Positions 1,828-63,150 are shown, counted from the stretch's first letter. The stretch: 64,000 nucleotides of DNA from a virus (IMGVR_UViG_3300016665_000619:1-64000); one strand, 5' to 3'. A program made the numbers and translations. Notes: a model not told the origin generated them from the sequence alone.

Positions 1828-2079
1828 ATGGATACTGAAACTGTTGAACTTAATATTGGTGCTCTTGTTCGCTTTTGTGCTTCTGCAAGTATGTTTTGGG
1901 AAGATCAAAATGAGTTCTCACCAGATTTTGATAAGGAGCAGTATGCCAACGACATTTATCCAGAAAATGAAAATCCGCTCGCAATGATTATTGGAGCGGA
2001 CTTCACGGGGGTATATGTTAGGGTGTTGTGGGGAGAAAGGAGAGGCTGGGTTTTAAATACGGCTCTCTCGTCACTCTAA
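1828..2079 (+). CDS. hypothetical protein (SH3-like beta-rich C-terminus)
   Basis: ORF in the operon; VYVRVLWGERRGWV. Confidence 0.55.
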   Translation: MDTETVELNIGALVRFCASASMFWEDQNEFSPDFDKEQYANDIYPENENPLAMIIGADFTGVYVRVLWGERRGWVLNTALSSL

Positions 2080-2082
2080 ATA

Positions 2083-2799
2083 TCAGTCAAGCTTGCAAAC
2101 TTCCTTTAACGAAGGAAGTTTTTTTGCTTTTTTATTTTCTTCCATTGTTGGCTGGAATCCGCCTGTAACTCCACGAGTTAATCCGCCTCTGGCTCTAGCT
2201 GGCATATCAGCTCTTGGAGCATTTGAAGCTGCTGGAATGCCGGTTCGTGGTGTTGGAACGCTAACAGTGCTTTGTCCAAGTTCAGAACCTTTAATAGCTT
2301 GGCTAATTTTTGTATTAGCATCGGCTACAGCTTGTTGAAGCTGGCGTAATGTTCCACGTGCGGTTTTGAAAGTTGATTGTAATTTCTCAAATACTCCTGG
2401 CAAAGCCATTCTTTTTTCTTTATTATCAACAACGTCTTTAAACTCGCCGTATAGATCAACTAAAGAAGTTACATATTGGTCAAGAGCTCCATCGAGAGCA
2501 TCTACATCGCCAATTCTCATGCCTTTAAGCGCCTTCTCTTTTTGTGCTACTGTTTTAAGACCATTTTCCAATGCTTTCATTTCTGGAATGTCTTTTTCAA
2601 CATCGGAGGTAGTTGCACCACCATAACCCTTATAGCCTGGGACTAGTCCTCTGCCAACTGCCGAACCCATAGCAGATAATCCTTGCTTGATATTTTGAAA
2701 GAATTGCTCATTCAAAACTTCATTATTATAGCGTGAAAGTTTTCCCTCGAGAAGAGAATATTTTACTGATTCTGCTAACATGTTTTGTTGTTTTTTCAT
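2083..2799 (-). CDS. hypothetical helical protein, possible virion protein
   Basis: 238 aa; GAGGG RBS; ATATTTA motif upstream; LLE/LNE motifs near the N-terminus. Confidence 0.7.
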   Translation of the reverse strand: MKKQQNMLAESVKYSLLEGKLSRYNNEVLNEQFFQNIKQGLSAMGSAVGRGLVPGYKGYGGATTSDVEKDIPEMKALENGLKTVAQKEKALKGMRIGDVDALDGALDQYVTSLVDLYGEFKDVVDNKEKRMALPGVFEKLQSTFKTARGTLRQLQQAVADANTKISQAIKGSELGQSTVSVPTPRTGIPAASNAPRADMPARARGGLTRGVTGGFQPTMEENKKAKKLPSLKEVCKLD

Positions 2800-2846
2800 T
2801 TTCAGCCCTCTGTATAAACTTTAAATATCTTATATGACAACAAAAG

Positions 2847-2875
2847 TTTACAACTAAATCGCTTTTTGTTATTCT
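2847..2875 (+). promoter_or_regulatory. sigma70-like promoter (extended -10) for tdk
   Basis: TTTACA, 17-nt spacer ending TGt, then TATTCT; ATG 10 nt downstream. Confidence 0.6.
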
Positions 2876-2884
2876 ATTCTAGAT

Positions 2885-3469
2885 ATGAAAAACGCAATTT
2901 TAAAAGTCTATGCCGGACCTATGTATGCCGGTAAAACAACTTCTCTTCTAGGAGAACTAACCATCGCCATAGATAATGGTAAACGTCCTCTTGTAGTTAA
3001 ACCTCTAATAGATAATCGTTACTCAGATGATGATATCGTTTCACATGATGGTATATCAGTTAACCAAATAACAGGGGTTAAAGCTTTACGATTGCCAACA
3101 GATGAAATTCCAAGTCTTGATCAAATTAAAGATATTGATATTATCTTTGTTGATGAAGCTCAATTCTTTACAAATATTGGCAATGCTATAGATGCTTATC
3201 TGGAATTAGGAATAGATGTTGTTGCCGTAGGTCTAGATATGGATAGCAATGGCAAACCATTCGGTTCTATGCCAGCATTGCTAGCAAAAGCAAATAAGGT
3301 TCACAAGCTTACAGCTACTTGCTCTGTTTGCGGTGATACAGCCACAAGAACATATCGTAAGCCCGGTTCTTCAAAAGATCAGGTTCTAATCGGCGGCACA
3401 GAAACGTATGAACCTCGTTGTCTGGAACATTGGTCCCCTAGAAAAGCCTCTATCGCACCCGCAGCATGA
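2885..3469 (+). CDS. tdk: thymidine kinase
   Basis: GPMYAGKTT P-loop, DEAQF, GLDMD, CSVC...PRC zinc lasso, IGG.ETYEP. Confidence 0.95.
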   Translation: MKNAILKVYAGPMYAGKTTSLLGELTIAIDNGKRPLVVKPLIDNRYSDDDIVSHDGISVNQITGVKALRLPTDEIPSLDQIKDIDIIFVDEAQFFTNIGNAIDAYLELGIDVVAVGLDMDSNGKPFGSMPALLAKANKVHKLTATCSVCGDTATRTYRKPGSSKDQVLIGGTETYEPRCLEHWSPRKASIAPAA

Positions 3470-3470
3470 T

Positions 3471-3498
3471 AAAAGCCCTGTAAATCAGGGCTTTTTTA
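3471..3498 (+). terminator. intrinsic terminator
   Basis: AAAAGCCCTG-taaat-CAGGGCTTTT followed by T tract. Confidence 0.85.
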
Positions 3499-3502
3499 TT
3501 AC

Positions 3503-3531
3503 TTGAAAATATTCAATCCGATTGATACCAT
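3503..3531 (+). promoter_or_regulatory. sigma70-like early promoter (extended -10)
   Basis: TTGAAA, 17-nt spacer ending TGa, then TACCAT; ATG at 3538. Confidence 0.7.
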
Positions 3532-3537
3532 GTATAT

Positions 3538-3753
3538 ATGCGAATGAAGAACATCTACTCCATGCTCGGCTCGGTTGGACTTCTTAACCTTCTCGGGACG
3601 GAAGAGGTCTGTCAGGCTCTTAACCTCTGGCACTCGGGTATCCTCTCGCATGATGAAACTCTGGACCGTCTCGGCGGGCACTCGTCCTATGTGTTGACCC
3701 ATCAGGATTATCGGATGGTGCTCAGTTATCTACACAATACCCTCTGCCGCTGA
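3538..3753 (+). CDS. hypothetical early protein
   Basis: Directly downstream of the promoter; higher GC. Confidence 0.55.
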   Translation: MRMKNIYSMLGSVGLLNLLGTEEVCQALNLWHSGILSHDETLDRLGGHSSYVLTHQDYRMVLSYLHNTLCR

Positions 3754-3764
3754 ACGATAAAAAC

Positions 3765-3920
3765 ATGGAAAAGCGAAACTCATATAAGAAGGCAATCATC
3801 GGTCCCGGTGGTCTAAACTGCTCCTGCTGCCGTTGTGGCACCAAGGGATTTGCCAAGCGTCTTAACAATCGTGGTAAGCGCAGGATTGCAAAGATTGCTC
3901 TACATAACGACGTTATCTGA
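3765..3920 (+). CDS. small basic Cys-cluster protein (51 aa), absent from the ORF track
   Basis: MEKRNSYKKAIIGPGGLNCSCCRCGTKGFAKRLNNRGKRRIAKIALHNDVI*; fills the gap between 3753 and 3923. Confidence 0.7.
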   Translation: MEKRNSYKKAIIGPGGLNCSCCRCGTKGFAKRLNNRGKRRIAKIALHNDVI

Positions 3921-3922
3921 TT

Positions 3923-4330
3923 ATGAATTTCCGTAAGGGTGCAAAGGTTTACGCTGTCCGTCCTGGCAATAGTCAGGTGGGCGAATATAAGTTTGCTCTT
4001 GCAGGTATTGATCATGCCTTCCTGCATATGCCGAAGGATCTATGGGACGATGCTCCCGAAGGGGAGTTGTTCCCCATTCCTCTAACCCACGTTTTCCGCA
4101 CAAAGGCAGAAGCAAAGGCTTTTGCAAATACGCTTGGTGTGAAGGTTGGTGATATTGTTGCGGTAGCCTCGTGGAATACATATCGTCAGGGCTTGGTTGT
4201 TAAGACCACTGATACCATGTTTGAAATGCTGCTTGGCAATGATGCTGATATCCAGCATAACAATGGTAAGATGAAGTCCAGGCACCATAAGAAGAATGCT
4301 ATTGTGCTTGCCCGTGGAGTCCATGCATGA
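3923..4330 (+). CDS. hypothetical protein (tandem paralog A)
   Basis: Shares PL.HVF.TK..A.A, KVGD.VAV, GLVVK and NNGKMK with 4327..4728. Confidence 0.8.
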   Translation: MNFRKGAKVYAVRPGNSQVGEYKFALAGIDHAFLHMPKDLWDDAPEGELFPIPLTHVFRTKAEAKAFANTLGVKVGDIVAVASWNTYRQGLVVKTTDTMFEMLLGNDADIQHNNGKMKSRHHKKNAIVLARGVHA

Positions 4331-4780: not shown

Positions 4781-5920
4781 TCAGCTTTTCTTAAACAACT
4801 TTACAATCAGATCGTTATAACCTTTAACGTTTCTCTCATGCTCTGGTAAGAACTTAGAGATATATTCTCTTGAGTTCTTAAGATACTCTTCACGATATCC
4901 TGGCACCTTATCAAATACCTTTATCACTTCGTGAAGATGTTTAACTGCCATTTCATCATCAAATCTTGGATAATACCAGCCTAACCCTGGAACCATTGCT
5001 GCATTATGAACAACAGGAAAACCTAACCAAGCGGCATCAAAATAAAGATAGTTCAAGTCACAATCTTGTTGATGAGAAAGAACAATGTCGGTATGCTTTT
5101 GAAGCGCCCATGTAATAGGATAACGAGCCTCAAAGAACATTTTCTTTGCACGATTAACATGAAGGTCTAATGCAAATCTTAAGAATGACTTTTTATCCTT
5201 TATGTGGGCGGTGCCAAACATACTGAACTTCTTAACTTCATTAGGATACTTCTCATGGAACTTCTCAGCTATAATCATCGGAAAGATAGCTGTCTTGTTC
5301 ATACCAATATTTGGTTCAAAGGTAGATATTCTCTTTTGTGGCTCACCACTTGGCTGATATACTTCTGGATATCCCTTAAGCTTCAACTCTTCAACGTGAT
5401 GCATTAAGAAACGAGGCGACCATATATAAGGTCCAATTTCTGCCGGTGCATCATACATTACTTCAAACAAAGCTTTGTTGTTCTCATATAGATGCGGAGA
5501 TATCCATGAACCATCCAATCCTTTTACCTTACGAATAATGCTTGGATGATCAGTCTTGAATAGAACGTTCTCAAGGAATCCATAATATTCATTACCCATT
5601 GCGTGATTGATTACTTTTGCACCCTTCTCACGTGCTGCTTGTATCTCTCCATCGCCCATGAATATATTAACGTTTATGAACAATTGAACTTTCTCTAATG
5701 CCTCTTTAAAGTCATTAATGATCCACTTTTCATATTCCTTCCAAGGTGATTTGGAAACGTCTTTCTGTGGACCAAAGTTCATGTAGTAACATTCATTTAT
5801 AACGTCTGTCTTTATCAAACAATCTCTTAATATAATAGCATTTTGCTTAATACCATTCGTAAAAAAACTCTCCGTTGGTTCAGCAATGTTTATCGTTATA
5901 GCAGCGTTTATTTTATTCAT
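4781..5920 (-). CDS. DUF2827-like protein (putative GT-B glycosyltransferase)
   Basis: FTNGIKQN, W.SPH, FEPNI...K...P, TDIVLSHQ...LNYLYFD...G.PVVHN motifs; GAGGAG RBS. Confidence 0.7.
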   Translation of the reverse strand: MNKINAAITINIAEPTESFFTNGIKQNAIILRDCLIKTDVINECYYMNFGPQKDVSKSPWKEYEKWIINDFKEALEKVQLFINVNIFMGDGEIQAAREKGAKVINHAMGNEYYGFLENVLFKTDHPSIIRKVKGLDGSWISPHLYENNKALFEVMYDAPAEIGPYIWSPRFLMHHVEELKLKGYPEVYQPSGEPQKRISTFEPNIGMNKTAIFPMIIAEKFHEKYPNEVKKFSMFGTAHIKDKKSFLRFALDLHVNRAKKMFFEARYPITWALQKHTDIVLSHQQDCDLNYLYFDAAWLGFPVVHNAAMVPGLGWYYPRFDDEMAVKHLHEVIKVFDKVPGYREEYLKNSREYISKFLPEHERNVKGYNDLIVKLFKKS

Positions 5921-6053: not shown

Positions 6054-6803
6054 ATGAAGCTCAATCTCGGTCAGCCCTCCGTCAATACCACCACCAACAT
6101 TCTTGATATTGACGTTCCCGCCCAGCTTGAGGAAAACGTTAATACCGGGTTCGCTCATATTGACGCCCTGTTCGCTGGCGACGGCATTACTCCGTCTACC
6201 GCCGCTATCGTTACTGGCATTCCCGGTGCTGGTAAGACTACCCTTATGCTCCAGCTTGCCGATGCTATCACGGGTGCGGGTCATATCGCTCTTTACAATA
6301 CCGGCGAGGAATCGCTTTATCAGGTTCGTAAGGTCGTGCGCCGTCTCGGGCTTGAGAATGGCTTTATCCCTTCCTATGAGTCCTCTGCACAGGATATCGT
6401 GAAGAAGGCAAAGGCTGTTCAGCGTGCCAATCCCGGTAAGCAGGTCTTCCTCTTCGTTGACTCGCTGCAATGCGTTGAGGTTGATCGTGAGAAGGGGCAG
6501 CGTGGTCGTGGTCCCTCGCAGGGTTCCAAGGAGGTCAACGCTACCGAGATCCTTACGCAATGGGCTAAGGAGACGTTCGGCGTTGCCATGATCATCGGTA
6601 TGGTTACGAAGGACGGAACCTTCGCTGGTAAGCAAGCTATCCGCCATATCGTTGATGCTCACCTTCACCTTTCGGTTGACACGGATCGTAAGAGCGATAC
6701 CTACGGGCAGCGCCTCGCCAGCATGGAGAAGAATCGCTTTGGTCAGTCGGGAATTGGCTATACGTATGAGATCAACTCCTCCGGCGTTCACTTTGAGGTT
6801 TGA
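6054..6803 (+). CDS. RadA/Sms-like RecA-family ATPase (ATPase core only)
   Basis: GIPGAGKTT Walker A, YNTGEES, FVDSLQ Walker B, VTKDG.FAG, HIVD, KNRFG motif; lacks the Zn finger and Lon-like domain. Confidence 0.85.
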   Translation: MKLNLGQPSVNTTTNILDIDVPAQLEENVNTGFAHIDALFAGDGITPSTAAIVTGIPGAGKTTLMLQLADAITGAGHIALYNTGEESLYQVRKVVRRLGLENGFIPSYESSAQDIVKKAKAVQRANPGKQVFLFVDSLQCVEVDREKGQRGRGPSQGSKEVNATEILTQWAKETFGVAMIIGMVTKDGTFAGKQAIRHIVDAHLHLSVDTDRKSDTYGQRLASMEKNRFGQSGIGYTYEINSSGVHFEV

Positions 6804-6830
6804 TCCTCTAAACTAAATAAATCTTCCCTT

Positions 6831-6860
6831 AAAGACCTGGCTTCGGCTGGGTCTTTTCTT
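6831..6860 (+). terminator. intrinsic terminator
   Basis: AAAGACCTGGC-TTCG-GCTGGGTCTTTT. Confidence 0.85.
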
Positions 6861-6881
6861 ATTTGCGGCGTATCTATTATT

Positions 6882-7082
6882 ATGAACCAATCTCAAAAAG
6901 ACCTACTCAAAGTATTCCTATGGAGACTTATCTCTATCCCTATCTCCATGTTTACCACTTACCTCTTTACAGGTAGAGCAGACCTATCTCTATCACTTAC
7001 TATCATACTAACTATAGTCCTTACTATAGGTCAATTCTTCTATGAAAAGCTCTGGCGCTATCTACTAAACAATCATATTTAA
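6882..7082 (+). CDS. DUF2061-like small membrane protein
   Basis: LLKVFLWRLIS...YLFTG...FFYEKLW; two TM helices. Confidence 0.65.
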   Translation: MNQSQKDLLKVFLWRLISIPISMFTTYLFTGRADLSLSLTIILTIVLTIGQFFYEKLWRYLLNNHI

Positions 7083-7087
7083 TGGAT

Positions 7088-7792
7088 ATGAAACTACAAT
7101 CCATCCTTTCTTATCTATTAACAGAAAATATCGGCGGCTTATACGAAGACGTTCTTGAAATAGCTAACTACCCAGAAGGCTTCGACATTAACCAATTCAA
7201 AGACCTCCCCTCCTATGCTGCTAAAGCTAGATACCTACGTTCACATGGTCTAGATAAACTAGGTGCTGGTTCCTCTAGAGCTGCCTTTATAGCTGATAAT
7301 GATACCGTCATTAAAGTAGCTAAGAATAAAAAAGGACTAGCTCAAAATAGAGTAGAAGCTAATATCTCCTCTGACGATTTCATGCCAGCTAATGCTCCTC
7401 TCGCTCTCGTTAAAGACCATGACCCAGATTACGTATGGATTGAATCTGAAAGAGCTAGAAGGGCTAAACCTACCGACTTCCAATCTATCGTAGGGTATCC
7501 TATGAAAGACGTTATCAAAACCGTAAGAGAACTAGTTGATAACTATAAAGATAAACGTCAACCAGTAGCCTCTTACTGGTATCTTAAAGATAGAGAACTT
7601 TTTGATCAACTCTCCGAAACACCATTCATTACCGATCTAGTAGATATCATCGTTAACCATGACCTCGAGATGGGTGACATTGATCGTATCTCCTCTTGGG
7701 GTGTAGTCAATCGTAATGGTTCCCAACAACTCGTCCTCATTGACTACGGACTAGACGATCAGGTCTGGAAACAACACTACGCAAGACGGTGA
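7088..7792 (+). CDS. protein-kinase-like fold protein with putative capsid-targeting leader
   Basis: LGAGSSR glycine loop, VIKVA Lys, QN..E helix C, GD, LVLIDYG; leader MKLQSILSYLLTE. Confidence 0.75.
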   Translation: MKLQSILSYLLTENIGGLYEDVLEIANYPEGFDINQFKDLPSYAAKARYLRSHGLDKLGAGSSRAAFIADNDTVIKVAKNKKGLAQNRVEANISSDDFMPANAPLALVKDHDPDYVWIESERARRAKPTDFQSIVGYPMKDVIKTVRELVDNYKDKRQPVASYWYLKDRELFDQLSETPFITDLVDIIVNHDLEMGDIDRISSWGVVNRNGSQQLVLIDYGLDDQVWKQHYARR

Positions 7793-7796
7793 TCAT

Positions 7797-8633
7797 ATGA
7801 CTAATCTATCCACGCTATTAGAATACCTTGATGAAGATATAGATGAAGCAGCTAAATCTGTTCCAGAAGCCATATCAGAAAAACTTGCGGCGTATACTTC
7901 TAATAACTTCATCATACTATATAACCCTCAAACCGCCGTTAACAATAATAAAAAAAATAAACAAAACTATGTTATCTCCTTTCAAAACGCTATAGTAGGA
8001 TATGTCAGATTTGAACCAAATGATGATTGCGACAATAATACCTATGAGGTTAAAAATAGCGCAGCTCTATCTGGTTACGGTCCTCTAATATATGATCTAG
8101 TACTATCTCAAATATATCCAAAATACCTTATTGCTGATAGAAACTCTATCTCTAATAAAGCTCTTAAAGTCTGGGACTTCTATCTCAATAATAGACCCGA
8201 CGTTAATAAACAACTTCTCTCCTCTATCATTGACTATAATCCAGATAACTCCTTTTGCTCTCTACCCGCTGAAGCCTGGAATAAAAGCCGCTCCTTCTCT
8301 AATATTATCTCTAAACTCTCTGTTATCAAAAGAGAACTACAAGATGCTATTGACTTCAATGATGATCCAAAGTCTATCGCTAAACTCCAATCACAACTAG
8401 ATAAAACTAAACAGAAAGCTGAACTCGCTCTTGCTAAAATACCAACAGCTTACAAATATCAAATCAAATCCCCTAAAGGGCTTACTGCACTAAAAAACAA
8501 TCACTTACGTTTCATTCAACTAGTTCCATCCATGTTCCCTAATGCTAATCTATATAAAAACTTCGATCCTAAACAATACGTTGAACAGGCTCTATTAGAC
8601 GAAGCTGAAACCTTCTTCGAAGATATGTATTGA
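7797..8633 (+). CDS. putative GNAT-fold acetyltransferase with putative capsid-targeting leader
   Basis: IVGYVRF...EVKNSAALSGYGPLIYDLVL...LIADRNSISNKALKVW; leader MTNLSTLLEYLDE. Confidence 0.55.
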   Translation: MTNLSTLLEYLDEDIDEAAKSVPEAISEKLAAYTSNNFIILYNPQTAVNNNKKNKQNYVISFQNAIVGYVRFEPNDDCDNNTYEVKNSAALSGYGPLIYDLVLSQIYPKYLIADRNSISNKALKVWDFYLNNRPDVNKQLLSSIIDYNPDNSFCSLPAEAWNKSRSFSNIISKLSVIKRELQDAIDFNDDPKSIAKLQSQLDKTKQKAELALAKIPTAYKYQIKSPKGLTALKNNHLRFIQLVPSMFPNANLYKNFDPKQYVEQALLDEAETFFEDMY

Positions 8634-9143
8634 TTATATCAAATATCCTTATATTTTACAAACGACACACCCACAAACCCTCATATTATCAAGGCTTTTT
8701 ACTGTTTTAAAATATCCCAATAAAATCAACAGTTTCCTCTAAAACCGCATTTATAACGTGTTTTTAAACCCTTGTGCAATAATGGGGCATATTTGATAGG
8801 GTCATATAAGGTAGTATATAGTAAGTTAGGGACAAGACCCCACTAAACAAACTCTTCGGACTATATCACCCCAATAGTTTATAGCTAGCCAGTAGTAGAG
8901 ATATCTCCTAACCCCCCTAAATAAGTTCTAAAGGGGGTGGGGTAGGGGGCTGTTATACCCCCCCTGTGTTTGATGGGGGGCTACCCCCCTACAAGATGTG
9001 TGGGGCTCTCGTTGTGCTGGACGAGGCCATACCCACACACAAAAATTTTTTTGGAATTTTTGGGAATTGACTTTTCCGGGTCAGGGACTGAATATTTATT
9101 GCAAAATTTTTTTGGGAAAAATTTTTTTGGAAATTTTCCGTTG
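8634..9143. other. structured non-coding region; candidate replication origin or genome end
   Basis: Largest intergenic gap; G/C-run inverted repeats at 8911-9040; three copies of AAAATTTTTTTGG; GC skew inverts across it. Confidence 0.6.
9042..9130 (+). repeat. 3 x AAAATTTTTTTGG direct repeats
   Basis: Copies at 9042-9054, 9103-9115 and 9118-9130, plus degenerate AATTTT(T)GG/CC copies. Confidence 0.85.
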
Positions 9144-9157
9144 CTATTTAAGTGGGT

Positions 9158-9760
9158 ATGAAACTAACGAATCTAATAAACTTTTTACTTGAAGAAGAAG
9201 ACTATCGTGGTGTTCACCGGGCGCCTGGAAAGACAAATGGGGCGCCGCTTTGGGACGTAACCAAGGACGTGTATCCGGACGATATATATACATTGCCAGT
9301 AGCTACGGCTGCAAGATACTATGGAGCGAGTGAACCTGGAGATATTACGGTAATGAGTATTATCCGGAGTTATCACAACAAGCCTAATAGTAAGATAAAG
9401 ATATATCGTTCTGTTCCAGATATGAAGACGATAGAGGAAGAGATAGCGGAGTTAGAGGGATATCTGAAACAGATGTTAAGAAGGGGCAGAGCACCGAAGG
9501 GCGTAAGTATGTCATTTGACGAGATATATGCCCGTAAGGAGAAGTTGAAGGCAGATTTAGAGCGGGGCGATGTTTCCCGGCCTAGCAAGATAAAGGATAT
9601 AAATCCTGGTGATTGGGTATCTATCTATCGTCCTTATGTAGTAGAGCATGGTGAGGGAGCATTAGGTGGAGAGTATAAAGTTTTAAGTAAGACGGTATAT
9701 GCGAGAGACTTATATACTGATGGTAATAGCATGTATGAATGGGGATGGGATCCAGCATGA
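9158..9760 (+). CDS. putative ADP-ribosyltransferase-like protein with capsid-targeting leader
   Basis: IKIYRSVP...INPGDWVS...YVVEHG...VLSKTV.ARDLY...YEWGW (R-S-E-like order); leader MKLTNLINFLLEE. Confidence 0.5.
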   Translation: MKLTNLINFLLEEEDYRGVHRAPGKTNGAPLWDVTKDVYPDDIYTLPVATAARYYGASEPGDITVMSIIRSYHNKPNSKIKIYRSVPDMKTIEEEIAELEGYLKQMLRRGRAPKGVSMSFDEIYARKEKLKADLERGDVSRPSKIKDINPGDWVSIYRPYVVEHGEGALGGEYKVLSKTVYARDLYTDGNSMYEWGWDPA

Positions 9761-10707
9761 GAAACAATCTGAAAACATTATTGGGATATTTATTGGAAGA
9801 GGAAACGGTTTCCCAGCGTCCGTTTATGTTATCTATAGATAACCTTGTAGCTCACCGTGATAGTCTATTTGATGCATATGAGCACTGTGTATATCGTAAT
9901 AGATGTTCGGAGAGTTCTGGACCTATAGTAGTAGCAGAGATAGAGGATGGGAAGTATCAGTTAATAGATGGCTATCATCGTTTGATAGAGCATTTATTAG
10001 ATCGTGGTGGATTGGTTCCTATTCATGCTATAGTTGGTGGCGAAGGAACTGGAGAGTATGCTATAGCTCGTGGAGTAGATCGTTGGTTAGGCGATGCATC
10101 TATGAGATATGGTAATCTTGAAGATTTAACGGATGAAGAAACGTTAGAAGGTCATGCCAATAAGCGCAAAAATGCAAAAAAGGGCGATTTATTTGAAAAT
10201 GGGGTTGGCGGGGGCGAAGATATCTGGTATCACACCACATCAAGAGAGAATGCGGAGAAGATCCTTCGTGAAGGATTGAGAATAAATCCAAGTGGTAAAG
10301 GAAAGAGCCGTGCTTCATTGCAATGGATGCCAGAAGCGTATGGAGGTATAACGCCGATCTTTATATCTCGTAAGCCTGGAAGATATGTAAATGGCGTTAT
10401 ATTGAAAGTAGACGTTAGTGGATTGGATTTAGTAGCGGACATACCTGGGTTAGTAGACTTTGATGGTCGTTTAACGGATCATAGTATATATTGGGATGAA
10501 GAAGAGACACCGGAGATAATCTGGGATTTGATGGATCCAGAAACTGGTGAGAGTGTTAATGGTGAGTTAGAGTTTGAATGGTTAAGAGAACCTGGGAATG
10601 ATATATCCAGGGCGGCTATAGAGTTAACTGGGACTGCTGCTGTAATGGAAGACATAGAACCATCCCGTATAGAGTTAACGGAGATGATTGTGGAGAAAAA
10701 CACATGA
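9757..10707 (+). CDS. ParB/Srx-like domain fused to ART/Tpt1-like domain, with capsid-targeting leader
   Basis: PIVV...YQLIDGYHRL (ParB-like); WYHTTSRENAEKILREGL...IFIS...VILKVD (NAD-dependent ART/KptA-like); leader MRNNLKTLLGYLLEE. Confidence 0.6.
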   Translation: MRNNLKTLLGYLLEEETVSQRPFMLSIDNLVAHRDSLFDAYEHCVYRNRCSESSGPIVVAEIEDGKYQLIDGYHRLIEHLLDRGGLVPIHAIVGGEGTGEYAIARGVDRWLGDASMRYGNLEDLTDEETLEGHANKRKNAKKGDLFENGVGGGEDIWYHTTSRENAEKILREGLRINPSGKGKSRASLQWMPEAYGGITPIFISRKPGRYVNGVILKVDVSGLDLVADIPGLVDFDGRLTDHSIYWDEEETPEIIWDLMDPETGESVNGELEFEWLREPGNDISRAAIELTGTAAVMEDIEPSRIELTEMIVEKNT

Positions 10708-11453
10708 AACTTAACAAACTTATAGATTATCTTTTTGAGAACATGGATGAATCTGCCTTACGTGGATTTTCTTTGGATATCTTGAAGAAGGAAACGAAGC
10801 GACTAAAAGCAGAAGATGGATATATAGAAGACATATCATATGGATTGTCTCAACTTGCCGAGAAGTATGATCTACCATATATGGGAAGAGGAAGTTCCCG
10901 AGTTGTATATGCTTTGTCTACTGGCAAGGTATTAAAGATATCCAGGGATGAAAGAGGTCTTGCTCAAACAGAGGCAGAAGTATCTGTATGGACCAATCCT
11001 TCTACGAAAGAAGTAGCGGCACAGGTATTTGATTTTGATCCGGATTTTAACTGGTCTGTCATGGAGATAGCAAAGACGTTTAAGGATCCATATAGTAACT
11101 ATAAGGCATCTCTGGAGCAAGAGCTTGGAATACCTACTGCATATGGAGTAACATTTACAATCGGAGATATTGTTAATGAGCTTTTATCTGATCGTTCTGA
11201 TGGTATAGCTACAGAATCAATACAAGATAAGTTGGCAGAGTTGCCCCGTGGACAAGAGATTGTATTACGTAAGCGTCTTGAGAAGTATTTAGAAAATCCG
11301 CATCCATTTGTTGATAAGATAGCGGATTTGGTTCATAATAATGATTTAGATACAGGCGACATAGTATCTGATCATTTTGGTAAGACTGCTGATGGACGTA
11401 TAGTTTTGATAGACTATGGTTTCACGGAAGCCGTGGCAGAAGAATTCTATTGA
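10704..11453 (+). CDS. protein-kinase-like fold protein with capsid-targeting leader
   Basis: MGRGSSRVVY, KVLKI, WSVME, GDIVSDHFG, VLIDYG; leader MKLNKLIDYLFE. Confidence 0.75.
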   Translation: MKLNKLIDYLFENMDESALRGFSLDILKKETKRLKAEDGYIEDISYGLSQLAEKYDLPYMGRGSSRVVYALSTGKVLKISRDERGLAQTEAEVSVWTNPSTKEVAAQVFDFDPDFNWSVMEIAKTFKDPYSNYKASLEQELGIPTAYGVTFTIGDIVNELLSDRSDGIATESIQDKLAELPRGQEIVLRKRLEKYLENPHPFVDKIADLVHNNDLDTGDIVSDHFGKTADGRIVLIDYGFTEAVAEEFY

Positions 11454-11467
11454 AAATATTTAAAGCT

Positions 11468-12316
11468 ATGAAACTCAAGAACTTATTAAACTATTTGTTA
11501 GAGAATGTAGATGAAGGTGCGCTTCGTGGTTTCTCATTGGATATTCTTAAGAAGAAGATGCCAGAGTTTGAGAAGTATGGATATCCGGAAAGCATTGGAC
11601 GCCAAATAAGAAACCTGGTTGATGGACAATACAAGCTTCCATATATGGGAGTTGGCAGTTCCCGCATTGTGTATGCATTATCTACCGGTAAAGTATTGAA
11701 GATAGCATTGAATGATAAGGGTGTTGCCCAGAATCAAGCCGAGCATGAGGTATCCAGAGATCCATCATTAAAATATATTGGCGCTCGAGTATATGAGACA
11801 GATCCAAACTATTATTGGTCTGTAATGGAAGTAGCAAAGATATATGAGAGTAGCACGGATCTCAAGTTAGATTTAGGAATACCAAAGAATTTATCTGAAC
11901 GTTGGAATTATGAAATACGTAAAGCAATAGAAGATTTAAGATCAATCTATAATCTGGGATATAATGTTGAAGACGTTATAGAAAGAAGATATGATAGTGA
12001 TGATCTTGGAGATGGTGATCCAGATTTTGATGAAGACAAGGAAGCTTTTAGAAAGTTTTTAGAGAATCCGCCAAAGGGATTGTTAGCTCTTGTAGATTTA
12101 ACAGATACGGGTCTTGGTGGACATTCATTAGAAATGGGCGATATAGTTACGGATCACTTTGGTAAGACAGCAGATGGTCGTCCTGTATTGATAGATTATG
12201 GATTTACTACAGGAGTAGCTGAAGGTTATTATCGTAGTGATAGTAACTCATATGGTTCCCCGCCGCCTTCATCTATAATGAGTCAAGATGAAGAAGAAGA
12301 TGTGCTTTTTGTGTGA
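11468..12316 (+). CDS. protein-kinase-like fold protein (close paralog of 10704..11453)
   Basis: MGVGSSRIVY, KVLKI, GDIVTDHFG, VLIDYG; leader MKLKNLLNYLLE. Confidence 0.75.
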   Translation: MKLKNLLNYLLENVDEGALRGFSLDILKKKMPEFEKYGYPESIGRQIRNLVDGQYKLPYMGVGSSRIVYALSTGKVLKIALNDKGVAQNQAEHEVSRDPSLKYIGARVYETDPNYYWSVMEVAKIYESSTDLKLDLGIPKNLSERWNYEIRKAIEDLRSIYNLGYNVEDVIERRYDSDDLGDGDPDFDEDKEAFRKFLENPPKGLLALVDLTDTGLGGHSLEMGDIVTDHFGKTADGRPVLIDYGFTTGVAEGYYRSDSNSYGSPPPSSIMSQDEEEDVLFV

Positions 12317-12432: not shown

Positions 12433-13020
12433 ATGAATAAAGGAACCATAGTTCAAATCGTATTGTTTTCGATATTGTTAGTTGGTGCTGTAGTAGGAAT
12501 AATATACGGAGCAACCAATCATTCAGAAGCTGGAATGATGAACATATGTTGGAGTAGAGGTGGCATAGCCGACTATTCTTGCACCGAGGGTGGTGAACCA
12601 GTTCGTTGGAATCATTCTCCTTTAATGGTTGGAGCAGACGGAGAAGAGTCTGCTGTTCGTTCAGCCGTAAGTTTGATTAATGGTCAAGTTGGTTGTGAGG
12701 TATTGGTATATGCTCCAACTGGCGGGATTGATATTAATATAAGAACCGAAGGTGCTCTTGGTGGTGGTAATGAGCGTGGTGGTTCAACAAGCCATATAAG
12801 AGACATTAATGGCAACATGAGAGCCAATATAGAGTTATATGCACCTGGTTCAATATTGAGAAGAGTATTGGTTCATGAGTTAGGTCATGCACTTGGATTA
12901 GCACATGATGATTACAGAAGTTCTATTATGTATCCGACTCAAGAAGGCGTAACAAATATGGATATGATACAATTCAGCGAGAGTGATCGTGCGTTATTGC
13001 GTGATAGTTATTGTCGCTGA
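12433..13020 (+). CDS. membrane-anchored matrixin-like (M10) zinc metalloprotease
   Basis: N-terminal TM helix; HELGHALGLAH zinc motif; SIMYP Met-turn; AGAGG RBS. Confidence 0.85.
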   Translation: MNKGTIVQIVLFSILLVGAVVGIIYGATNHSEAGMMNICWSRGGIADYSCTEGGEPVRWNHSPLMVGADGEESAVRSAVSLINGQVGCEVLVYAPTGGIDINIRTEGALGGGNERGGSTSHIRDINGNMRANIELYAPGSILRRVLVHELGHALGLAHDDYRSSIMYPTQEGVTNMDMIQFSESDRALLRDSYCR

Positions 13021-61378: not shown

Positions 61379-61861
61379 ATGGCAAAGAAAAAAATCCCAG
61401 TATATCAACCAGCAGCACCTTCATTTCAAGCACAGACTCCTCCAGACGAACCAGATATAACAGGAATGGAAGTTGGTTTCCGTCGTCCAAATATAGATGA
61501 TCTGGACGAGAAGATCAATAAACAGCTTCATGACTTTTCTGCGCTTTTAAACCAGATATCCTCTGTAGAAGATAAACAGAAGGCACTCTGGAAACAGATT
61601 TACGAGAATGCAGTTCAAGACCGTAAGAACGCTTATATCATGTGGATAGACCTTTATGGATATGTCCACGCTAATCCTAATGAGCACGCCATACATGGTC
61701 AGAACTTGTCTCGCTACATGGAAAGAATGAGCAAGGCAAATGATCAAATTCTCAAGCTTACAGAACTAGTTTCTAAAGCCAGTGAAGAGGATTTGGACGA
61801 AATGATGAGTGAAGAAGATATTTATGATAAAATCCAACAAACAACCGGTTTGAAACAATGA
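61379..61861 (+). CDS. conserved helical hypothetical protein
   Basis: 160 aa; ATATTTA 5 nt upstream of the ATG. Confidence 0.75.
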   Translation: MAKKKIPVYQPAAPSFQAQTPPDEPDITGMEVGFRRPNIDDLDEKINKQLHDFSALLNQISSVEDKQKALWKQIYENAVQDRKNAYIMWIDLYGYVHANPNEHAIHGQNLSRYMERMSKANDQILKLTELVSKASEEDLDEMMSEEDIYDKIQQTTGLKQ

Positions 61862-63150
61862 TTTTATCAAAACATCAACAAATCTTAGAAAAAATAAAAA
61901 AAGTAATTCGTCCATTGGTTTTAGAACAGATGGATGAAGGTGGTCTTGGTGGTCACATGGCACATTTGCATGAAGATCAAGATTTAACTTTTGGCGAACT
62001 TAAAGCAATATTCGTCCAAGCCAGCAAAGGTAAACTGGAGAGTGTTACTGAAAAACTTGATGGACAAAATACTTTCTTCACTTTCAGCCCAACAGAAGGC
62101 TTAAGATTTGCTCGTAATACCGCTCACATAAAAACTGGTGGTATGGGCTCAGATGAAATAGAAACAAAATGGGCAGACAAACCTGCCGTTGCTGCCGCTT
62201 TTGGAAAAGCCTATAAAGTGTTATCTGCTGCTATAGCTGCCCTATCTCCAAAAGATAGACAAACCATATTTAATGATGGAAATATTTGGTATTCAGCAGA
62301 AATCGTTGGAACATTAAATCCAAACGTAATCAATTATGACCAAGATGCTGTCATATTCCATGAGAGTGGAACTGTATATGATGAAAATGGTGAGCCACTA
62401 AACGTTGATACAAGTGCAAACTTTGCTAAACTTGTTTCTTCTGTTAATAGAATGCAGGCAGCAATAAAAGATAGTGGCTGGAAAGTTATGGGACCGGTCA
62501 TGGTTCCATTACAAAAGCTTTCTAATAATGAGCCATTAGAAATTGCTATAGCTTCTCTTGACCAAATAATGAATCGTCATGGTATGACCAATGACAATAG
62601 TCTTGGTGATATGTTTGAAGAGTATGTTGCCTCAGACGTTCTTAAAGATATTGTAGCAGATGATGATACCAAACAATATATTGCTGAACTAGTATCAGAT
62701 TTTGATAACAATATTACAAGTAAAAAGCCAATATTGGCAGACTTAGTAAGTGAAGGTTTGATTCAAAAGGAAGATTTAAAAGCTATTAGTTTTGTTATTA
62801 AGGACGGTCCAAGACTTTATACTGCCCTTGTGGAACCGGTTAGAGAAATAGTTAGAGAGTTTGCTGTTGAAGTTCTAAAAGCCGTTCAAAGCTATCTTAT
62901 CATAAATCCAAATAAGGAAATTCAACGACTACGTGGAGAAGTTGAAAAGGCTATTTCCGCAATAGAAAAAACCGGAACAGAACGTTCAAATGAAGTTTTG
63001 CAAAAAGAGCTTGGTCGTTTACGTAACATGGATAACATTACAAGCTCAATGGAAGGAGTAGCTTTCAAATATAATGGAAAGCTATATAAACTTACAGGCG
63101 CTTTTGCTCCAGTTAATCAAATACTTGGAATAGCAAAGTATGGTAGATAA
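61858..63150 (+). CDS. ligase-like nucleotidyltransferase-fold protein (DUF6267-like)
   Basis: EGGLGGHMAH, TEKLDGQN (motif I KxDG), EGVAFK (motif IV-like), YKLTG. Confidence 0.65.
   Translation: MILSKHQQILEKIKKVIRPLVLEQMDEGGLGGHMAHLHEDQDLTFGELKAIFVQASKGKLESVTEKLDGQNTFFTFSPTEGLRFARNTAHIKTGGMGSDEIETKWADKPAVAAAFGKAYKVLSAAIAALSPKDRQTIFNDGNIWYSAEIVGTLNPNVINYDQDAVIFHESGTVYDENGEPLNVDTSANFAKLVSSVNRMQAAIKDSGWKVMGPVMVPLQKLSNNEPLEIAIASLDQIMNRHGMTNDNSLGDMFEEYVASDVLKDIVADDDTKQYIAELVSDFDNNITSKKPILADLVSEGLIQKEDLKAISFVIKDGPRLYTALVEPVREIVREFAVEVLKAVQSYLIINPNKEIQRLRGEVEKAISAIEKTGTERSNEVLQKELGRLRNMDNITSSMEGVAFKYNGKLYKLTGAFAPVNQILGIAKYGR

Follow-up and report, generated by a model that had tools for sequence, protein, structure and literature searches.

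A shared N-terminal leader on six consecutive genes of an uncultured jumbo phage: a putative capsid-targeting tag on a set of predicted modifying enzymes

INTRODUCTION

Why should six consecutive phage genes, whose products carry several unrelated cores, begin with nearly the same short peptide? The question is raised by a gene cassette in the virus record IMGVR_UViG_3300016665_000619 of IMG/VR, a sequence of 91,087 bp whose first 64 kb (positions 1–64,000) form the stretch analyzed here, hereafter called the window. CheckV puts the completeness of the record at 24%, so that we take it to be a fragment of a jumbo phage genome of, very roughly, 380 kb. The six genes, termed g1 to g6, follow one another on the + strand within 7082–12316, and an earlier note on this DNA had read their shared N-termini as a portable, T4-like leader on a virion-packaged kit of modifying enzymes. 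The explanation that we consider best, and rate as probable though by no means secure, is that the shared peptide is a capsid-targeting sequence and propeptide of the T4 type, placed on the parts of what may be called a split polyvalent protein.

Phage T4 supplies the precedent for such a peptide, the capsid-targeting sequence (CTS) of its internal proteins, which was reportedly treated by Mullaney and Black in 1996. The CTSs of IPI, IPII, and IPIII, like the propeptide of Alt, are removed by the prohead protease gp21 (PMC9026906, PMC3012670), which cuts after L/I-X-E. For packaging, the first 10 residues of IPIII are enough; within them, positions 4 and 7 act in targeting, and positions 8 and 10 in processing (PMC9026906). 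A review has put forward the CTS as a means by which diverse proteins could be loaded in T4-like phages (PMC9026906). The second precedent is the polyvalent proteins, which are injected and typically hold ADP-ribosyltransferases (ARTs), C-terminally truncated kinases of the Ser/Thr/Tyr type, GNATs, and DdrB-like ParB domains (PMC5512222, Iyer et al., 2017); smaller open reading frames (ORFs) near the kinase-containing loci resemble recombining cassettes (PMC5512222).

A LEADER SHARED BY SIX CONSECUTIVE GENES

The ORFs and N-termini of g1–g6 are as the earlier note had described them, and ORFs, starts, and a motif scan agree on its central observation of a near-identical N-terminal peptide in six consecutive genes. 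With start codons chosen by match to ortholog N-termini, the likely ATGs fall at 7088 (g1), 7797 (g2), 9158 (g3), 9757 (g4), 10704 (g5), and 11468 (g6). Translation from these yields an amphipathic leader of 12–14 residues in all six products, starting 0–3 residues after the Met and following the consensus L-x-x-L-[LI]-x-[YF]-L-x-E: MKLQSILSYLLTE in g1 (7088–7126), MTNLSTLLEYLDE in g2 (7797–7835), MKLTNLINFLLE in g3 (9158–9193; the protein starts MKLTNLINFLLEE), MRNNLKTLLGYLLE in g4 (9757–9798; the protein starts MRNNLKTLLGYLLEE), MKLNKLIDYLFE in g5 (10704–10739), and MKLKNLLNYLLE in g6 (11468–11503). Each leader ends in L-x-E, a form of the gp21-type motif L/I-x-E. Counted from this Glu as position 0, Leu stands at −6 in every gene, and −3 is occupied by Tyr or Phe in five genes and by Leu in g1.

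The leader is confined to this cassette. A six-frame scan of the entire 91,087 bp with the pattern L..[LIVM][LIVM].[YFW]L.{1,2}E, the whole-genome search that the earlier note had proposed, returned the six N-termini and one match across a stop codon, and none of the other ~75 genes in the record starts with the leader. It is also conserved at the level of the peptide. The 5′ regions of the six genes share a mean DNA column identity of 54% and differ synonymously in the codons that specify the shared Leu, Tyr, and Glu, so that selection acts on the peptide rather than on a DNA or RNA element; an RNA structure or a promoter inside the leader was rejected on the strength of this synonymous variation. 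A Sec or Tat signal peptide was likewise rejected from the sequence, given the absence of a hydrophobic core and the acidic end.

Structural models present the leader as an appendage. In AlphaFold2 models of g2 and g3 it forms a short helix of low confidence (predicted local distance difference test, pLDDT, <55) detached from a core above 90; in g2 the pLDDT is <50 over residues 1–16, and in g3 it is low over residues 1–18, with a detached helix at 3–11. BLAST comparison with the leaders removed indicates that four unrelated core types in this one genome carry the same leader. Beyond this genome, the leader occurs in 71 of 133 metagenomic homolog clusters (27 of 39 for g4, 27 of 30 for g2, 17 of 64 for g3), with the consensus L-[KSN]-[TN]-L-[LI]-[ENG]-Y-L-[LD]-E-[ED], and all 71 leader-bearing clusters have an [LIVM]-x-E within 6 residues.

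THE CORES BEHIND THE LEADER

What, then, does the leader precede? Pfam searches with the six proteins, and with their domains taken one by one, gave no match, and megablast found no match between the cassette region and cultured phages; the assignments below come from profiles, models, and motifs. They are largely consistent with the earlier note, which had proposed three kinase-like cores, a GNAT-like core, and a fusion of a ParB-like with an ART/Tpt1-like domain, and they depart from it at g3.

The products of g1 (7088–7792; phrog_4301, E 1.4e-12), g5 (10704–11453; phrog_4301 family), and g6 (11468–12316; with an acidic, Ser/Pro-rich tail, and 47% identical to g5) are paralogs by BLAST, g5 and g6 being 43–47% identical and g1 26–28% identical to them. 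We consider them kinase-like with moderate confidence, on the basis of the motifs GxGSSR, VxK (the β3 Lys), an αC Glu, a DLxxG[DN] loop, and DYG. Across 40 diverse members G63, R66, K78, E92, and D237/G239 (of DYG) are invariant and D219 nearly so. A profile search of the PDB places kinases first and in register, at weak scores (SteC, E 0.012–0.026; PAK4/5/7, E 0.1–1), and gp473 of K64-1, annotated "protein kinase," is 28% identical to g5. The family (phrog_4301) is large, with at least 3188 clusters at 50% identity (E ≤0.001), and no characterized member was found in the literature searched. Some members (P0136, P0137, and others) hold 3–5 tandem kinase-like stretches in a single protein of 690–920 residues.

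The g2 product (7797–8633) joins a GNAT-like core (approximately residues 20–150) to a helical C-terminal part. Nearly all listed Foldseek matches of its AlphaFold2 model (mean pLDDT 85.8) in the PDB are GNAT acetyltransferases, at weak scores (best E 0.045, probability ≤0.96, TM-score 0.2–0.24), and the family signature GYGPLxYD supplies the G-x-G of acetyl-CoA motif A (Q/R-x-x-G-x-G/A), but no Q/R three residues before it. The evidence for a GNAT-like fold is therefore weak but consistent. This core was located at 54 IMG/VR loci, in many cases in tandem paralogous copies, and examples of the leaders in front of it are MNLLREYIRELLTEA and MKQLRQYIRKTLLTEA. VIA-align searches of the g2 and g3 models were dominated by helical hairpins and did not inform on the cores.

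For g3 (9158–9760; phrog_2579, "ParB C-terminal domain," E 4.5e-31) the earlier note had suggested an R-S-E ART, a label that we found unsupported. The Glu concerned lies outside a Q/E-x-E motif: in 27 homologs E194 is invariant, and the residue two positions before it is always I, L, M, or V (G-N-S-[ILM]-x-E-W-G) and in no case Q or E. No ART structure matches significantly; cholera toxin A1 aligns with the g3 model at noise level (E 0.85, probability 0.10). The model itself is confident (pLDDT 91), with no significant match in a structure search of the PDB, and a PDB sequence search with g3 likewise found nothing. In BFVD it matches domains inside phage proteins of 276–1475 residues (E 3.5e-21 to 4e-8), one of them named large polyvalent protein associated domain protein. 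By its modeled fold, g3 thus represents a domain known otherwise from the interior of large polyvalent phage proteins. Its core always begins (E)DYRGxHxAP, and the peptide preceding this varies with the lineage.

The g4 product appears to combine two domains. The first (9805–10131) is ParB_N-like with moderate confidence: ESM Atlas returned ParB_N (PF02195) in 8 of 10 structure rows (TM-score ~0.5, residues 1–106) and ParB_N clusters in 20 of 30 feature matches, and the motif LIDGYHRL is invariant; Pfam and PDB sequence searches with this part found nothing. The second (10222–10707) has the pattern YHTT...GL.IN and ends I-V-E-K-N-T. A single-sequence PDB search with g4 yielded only noise, but a profile of 13 homologs of this domain had Tpt1/KptA RNA 2′-phosphotransferases as all of its top five PDB matches (E 0.0028), aligned on YHxT...IL.eGLk, and the homologs have weak Pfam matches to PTS_2-RNA and DarT. 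Together these matches place the domain, on sequence grounds, in the ART superfamily, on its nucleic-acid-modifying side. This ART domain was found on just two IMG/VR contigs.

Taken as predicted, the domain repertoire of the cassette is that of the injected polyvalent proteins.

FUSIONS AND A CLOSE RELATIVE

In relatives of the cassette genes the leader occurs once per polypeptide, whatever the polypeptide contains. Their architectures include leader + ART alone, leader + ParB + kinase, leader + ART + kinase, leader + ART + short GNAT, leader + ART + HExxH domain, leader + ParB + ART-PolyVal (PF18760, E 1.3e-8, above the gathering score), and leader + large unknown domain + ART. In each there is one N-terminal leader, and the second fused module is without one. 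What is kept at the fusion junctions is [LI]-x-E, as in MIVE|NVNE, IIE|ENVDE, and MIAE|NMDE. The g4 linker DLFE|NGVGGGEDIWYHTT looks like the remnant end of a leader; its L-F-E (10189–10197) is a candidate internal protease site, picked out by comparison with the homologs P0007 and P0025, which begin M[RK]LNKLI.YLFENGDGDGKNIWYHTT (P0007 starts MRLNKLINYLFENGDGDGKNIWYHTT). The motif is retained at these joints (MIVE|N, IIE|E, MIAE|N, DLFE|N), where a prohead protease might split the fusions into separate enzymes.

The closest relative, IMGVR_UViG_3300032280_000731 (hereafter L008), provides a view of the same cassette rearranged. Its g1 ortholog starts MKLSNLLHHLNE. In comparison with the window, g2 is reduced to a stub of 38 codons, g6 is missing, and g3 and g4 break off immediately behind their leaders, g3 keeping the leader and ~8 codons before a stop; a leader-tagged GNAT-like gene of 177 residues is additional. 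An in-frame fusion joins the ART domain to g5, and what is deleted at the joint is exactly the g5 leader. The breakpoints between the two genomes lie at leader or linker boundaries, and the leader is, judged from sequences and models, a separable and portable module. Close homologs occur also on metagenome contigs of 183 kb and 212 kb.

LEADERS AND PROHEAD PROTEASES IN OTHER LINEAGES

Homologs in other lineages have leaders of other sequence. Those of g3 begin MKTFQAFSE-, MKNFKAFFE-, MKTFQAFSESAE, MKNFKAFFESSEE, MQGFKIFIESFEE, MKFKTWLENED, or MINLLKEYISLLIENE, and resemble the T4 CTS MKTYQEFIAE, whose presence at the N-termini encoded by T4 ipII and ipIII we confirmed. In Vibrio phage 1.081.O (Schizotequatrovirus) the g3 homolog has the T4-style leader MYSFSEFINLAE; this phage has a match to the prohead protease family S77 (PF03420) at E 7e-95, and three genes from the S77 gene onward, probably protease, scaffold, and capsid by position, start MADLQLLIED, MQIKEQLLEA, and MNLTEKWKDLLEA. 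The GNAT-like and the kinase families, in turn, both occur with leaders of the forms LLREYI..LL.E and MK.LR.YIR. As far as these N-termini tell, leader type follows the phage lineage, not the protein family.

A complete genome allows leader and protease to be seen together. The 293-kb phage IMGVR_UViG_3300007513_000001 (hereafter G003), which has terminal repeats, encodes S77 and an analogous leader cassette, whose five genes at the two ends of the record (1951–4310 and 292823–293409) start M[NK][LI]LREYIR. Four of the five leaders continue ELL[SA]E or ELISE, and the cores are unrelated by BLAST. To judge from its sequence, G003 shows the same design with a different tag and with the protease present in the genome. 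It also encodes, at 286552, a protein of 931 residues with a g2-type domain. More broadly, S77 is present in four of five jumbo contigs with g2-family genes, including all three that are ≥90% complete.

For the lineage of the window itself, the nearest cultured or complete phages by baseplate wedge protein (~30% identity) are a 484-kb huge phage (LR756508.1), Microcystis phage Mel-JY01, and Flavobacterium phage immuto. S77 is present in both of these nearest relatives that were tested, and PF03420 also in the vibriophage and in K64-1. Neither LR756508.1 nor immuto has a homolog of the g2 or the kinase family, and the five jumbo contigs have no g3 homolog; the same leader beside a protease was therefore not found within the lineage. 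The S77 match of the 484-kb phage (LR756508.1:156507–158102) comes in two stretches of one open frame of 576 residues, which hints at an extended protease or at one with a large insertion.

GENE ORDER AND A CANDIDATE LATE PROMOTER ELEMENT

The cassette is laid out in two blocks. A spacing of 4 nt links g1 and g2, and a non-coding gap of 524 nt (8634–9157) then separates them from g3–g6, where g3/g4 and g4/g5 overlap through ATGA and g6 starts 14 nt past g5. The right part of the gap (8982–9201 in the alignment) is 81% identical to L008, and the gap has T/G-rich runs (TTTTGGGAAAAATTTTTTTGGAAATTTTCC).

As the earlier note had seen, TATTTA stands just upstream of three of the genes. The fuller motif [AC]TATTTA, a candidate late promoter element, lies at 7075–7081 (+ strand, 6 nt before the g1 ATG), at 9144–9150 at the end of the gap just before g3, and at 11456–11462 (+ strand, 5 nt before the g6 ATG), that is, 5–7 nt ahead of g1, g3, and g6. 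The record has 35 copies of the motif, and eight of them fall 0–9 nt before gene starts, compared with ~0.33 expected: at 7075, 9144, 11456, 13020, 36686, and 61367 in the window, and at 65187 and 82627 in the rest of the record. The five copies outside the cassette precede an FN3-repeat gene, two unannotated genes, the gene immediately ahead of the one for the baseplate wedge protein, and a late-region gene of 1471 residues. This placement fits late co-expression of the cassette. Were the motif a promoter −10 element, it would give near-leaderless mRNAs.

PACKAGING TAG OR ANOTHER KIND OF PEPTIDE

These observations can be assembled into the following scenario. The six genes would be expressed late, as two translationally coupled blocks (g1–g2 and g3–g6). 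The amphipathic helix of 12–14 residues would dock each product on the scaffolding core of the assembling prohead; its hydrophobic positions −6, −3, and −2 and its Glu 0 are as in the MKTYQEFIAE of T4 IPII and IPIII. A gp21/S77-type prohead protease would then cut after [LI]-x-E, possibly also at the L-F-E linker of g4, and the freed enzymes would be retained in the head until they pass into the host along with the DNA. The cargo so delivered would comprise three minimal kinases, a GNAT-like acyltransferase, a ParB_N-like domain, a Tpt1-like ADP-ribosyltransferase, and the polyvalent-protein domain. In a bolder form, to which we give less than even credence, the cassette would be a polyvalent protein broken up into modules that each have their own capsid address, and the prohead protease would recut the natural fusions inside the capsid.

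All computational tests that were run are consistent with the portable T4-like leader on a kit of modifying enzymes that the earlier note had proposed, the part that fell being the ART label of g3. They concern the form of the leader, its detachment from the core, the unrelated folds that carry it, its loss at internal fusion positions, the T4-style leaders in a T4-like phage, S77 in the nearest relatives, the polyvalent-like domain repertoire, and the motif common to virion-type late-region genes. Several points nevertheless weigh against this reading. The lineage is uncultured, and no gene for S77 (PF03420), scaffold, or capsid is present in the 91-kb record, 24% complete as it is, or in a 49-kb relative; for a protease in this lineage the evidence comes only from distant relatives (~30% identity). 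The T4 CTS is shorter than the leader and has another sequence, and [LI]-x-E is a motif of low information, with ~3 occurrences per 300 residues expected by chance. Late expression is read from a candidate promoter motif. Finally, N-terminal helices are frequent throughout the widespread kinase family and could partly belong to its fold.

That last point lends itself to a different account, which we judge unlikely, in which the leader is a cytoplasmic helix for docking, oligomerization, or stability (toward a phage or host partner, a chaperone, a regulator, or as a degron) and the enzymes are not packaged. An amphipathic helix detached from its core would suit any protein–protein docking, and no prohead protease is present in the fragment. 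Under this account, however, there is no explanation for why the leader always ends in an acidic [LI]-x-E, why g3 homologs of a true T4-like phage have T4-style leaders, why such leaders co-occur with genomes that encode S77, or why the domain set matches that of the injected polyvalent proteins and the motif recurs ahead of late-region genes. Improbable, in our assessment, is the idea that the conserved 5′ ends serve mainly as recombination sites for cassette shuffling, as in the hyperplastic loci of T-even phages, with a peptide of little function. The deletion, stub, and fusion breakpoints at leader and linker boundaries and the widely shuffled architectures speak in its favor; yet it is the peptide that is kept where DNA identity is low and codons vary synonymously, and it persists on homologs whose cores are only 35–60% identical. 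Shuffling at leader sites is moreover expected under targeting as well, and the two ideas are not exclusive.

A partner encoded nearby deserves separate mention, since directly after the cassette (12433–13020) lies a gene for a matrixin-like Zn-metalloprotease (PF00413, E 6e-10, HELGHALGLAHD) with an N-terminal membrane anchor, whose position is conserved in the close relative (L008:8863–9450). The leader might then be a signal for this enzyme, or for a maturase such as a radical-SAM enzyme of the kind that acts on ribosomally synthesized and post-translationally modified peptides. We regard this as very improbable. The presence of the metalloprotease gene in both genomes is what recommends it; the positive charges preceding its anchor, however, suggest an extracytoplasmic catalytic domain, the leaders have no hydrophobic core of an export signal, and zincins do not usually cut after Glu. 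A radical-SAM partner was rejected, as no such gene exists in the 91 kb or among the neighbors (the control was positive in 14 of 14 genomes). A capsid-targeting tag of the T4 type thus remains the account that we prefer.

OTHER GENES OF THE WINDOW

Just upstream of the cassette (6054–6803) is a gene for a KaiC/RadA-like P-loop ATPase (PF06745, E 9.5e-8), without the leader; SMS/RadA domains are among those listed for polyvalent proteins (PMC5512222). In L008 a GIY-YIG-type gene resembling homing endonucleases (L008:4491–5309, 272 residues) lies between the KaiC/RadA-like ATPase and DUF2061 genes, and it is missing at the equivalent place in the window (6804–6881). Farther upstream are genes for a DUF2827 protein (4781–5920, − strand, E 5e-81) and a thymidine kinase (2885–3469, + strand, E 3e-42). 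Toward the other end of the window, a protein of 430 residues with no family match (61858–63150) has L-V-L-E at residues 20–23, without the cassette leader.

RELATION TO KNOWN SYSTEMS

The cassette leader shares with the T4 CTS its principal features: a short N-terminal peptide on unrelated cargo, an L/I-x-E end, hydrophobic residues at −6, −3, and −2, adjacent cargo genes (ipII and ipIII both begin MKTYQEFIAE), and a predicted ADP-ribosyltransferase, as Alt is, among the cargo. It differs in sequence and in length (12–14 residues vs. 10) and stands on six tandem cargo cores that are all of catalytic type, mostly predicted enzymes, with relatives in which fusions retain [LI]-x-E junctions; and its protease gene was not found in the record of this lineage.

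With the polyvalent proteins the cassette has in common the predicted ART, minimal-core kinase, GNAT, and ParB/Srx domains, the g3 fold, which occurs inside such proteins, and a predicted delivery with the DNA. Here, however, the modules are separate, leader-tagged proteins of 200–320 residues or fusions of two to three domains, as opposed to giant polypeptides of 2–15 domains, and the cassette lacks a MuF or portal-associated anchor domain, delivery being ascribed to a CTS-like tag. With two domains in g4, two to three in relatives, and one in most genes, the cassette would work like a polyvalent protein without being a strict member of the class.

Two further systems offer partial parallels. 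In giant phages of the phiKZ type, head cargo is cut after Glu by a diverged gp21 homolog, the protease gp175 in phiKZ and gp245 in SPN3US (PMC5694885, PMC9026906), and paralogous cargo proteins have conserved N-termini; the cut motif there is S/A-x-E, most propeptides exceed 100 residues, and the cargo is mostly structural or virion RNA polymerase. The packaged anti-restriction Dar system of phage P1 (DarA, DarB, DdrB) likewise consists of head-packaged, injected proteins, including the ParB-like DdrB (PMC5512222), but relies on an ordered assembly pathway with the carriers Hdf and DarA and has no common short N-terminal tag. No description of a CTS-like tag on such enzyme modules was found in the literature searched. 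What would set the present cassette apart is its cargo, the enzyme set of polyvalent proteins, and the retention of the cut motif at natural fusion joints.

OUTLOOK

Should the proposed role of the leader be correct, loading of the head and clipping of the tag in the T4 manner would not be limited to three internal proteins and Alt, and would instead form a general route by which uncultured giant phages deliver whole batteries of enzymes that modify the host. Phosphorylation, acylation, and ADP-ribosylation by enzymes made beforehand would then already belong to the opening minutes of an infection. In practical terms, the leader would allow metagenomic phage genomes to be searched for injected effectors by a simple sequence rule, and its lineage-specific variants would be natural tags for loading cargo into phage capsids.

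The more tentative idea of a polyvalent protein taken apart would, if true, carry these consequences further. Leader and linker would be packaging signal, protease site, and recombination joint in one, so that phages could exchange kinases, acyltransferases, ARTs, and ParB domains among their injected cargo like plug-in units. The idea would also link the CTS and internal proteins of T4 with the polyvalent proteins, two systems that have so far been described apart.

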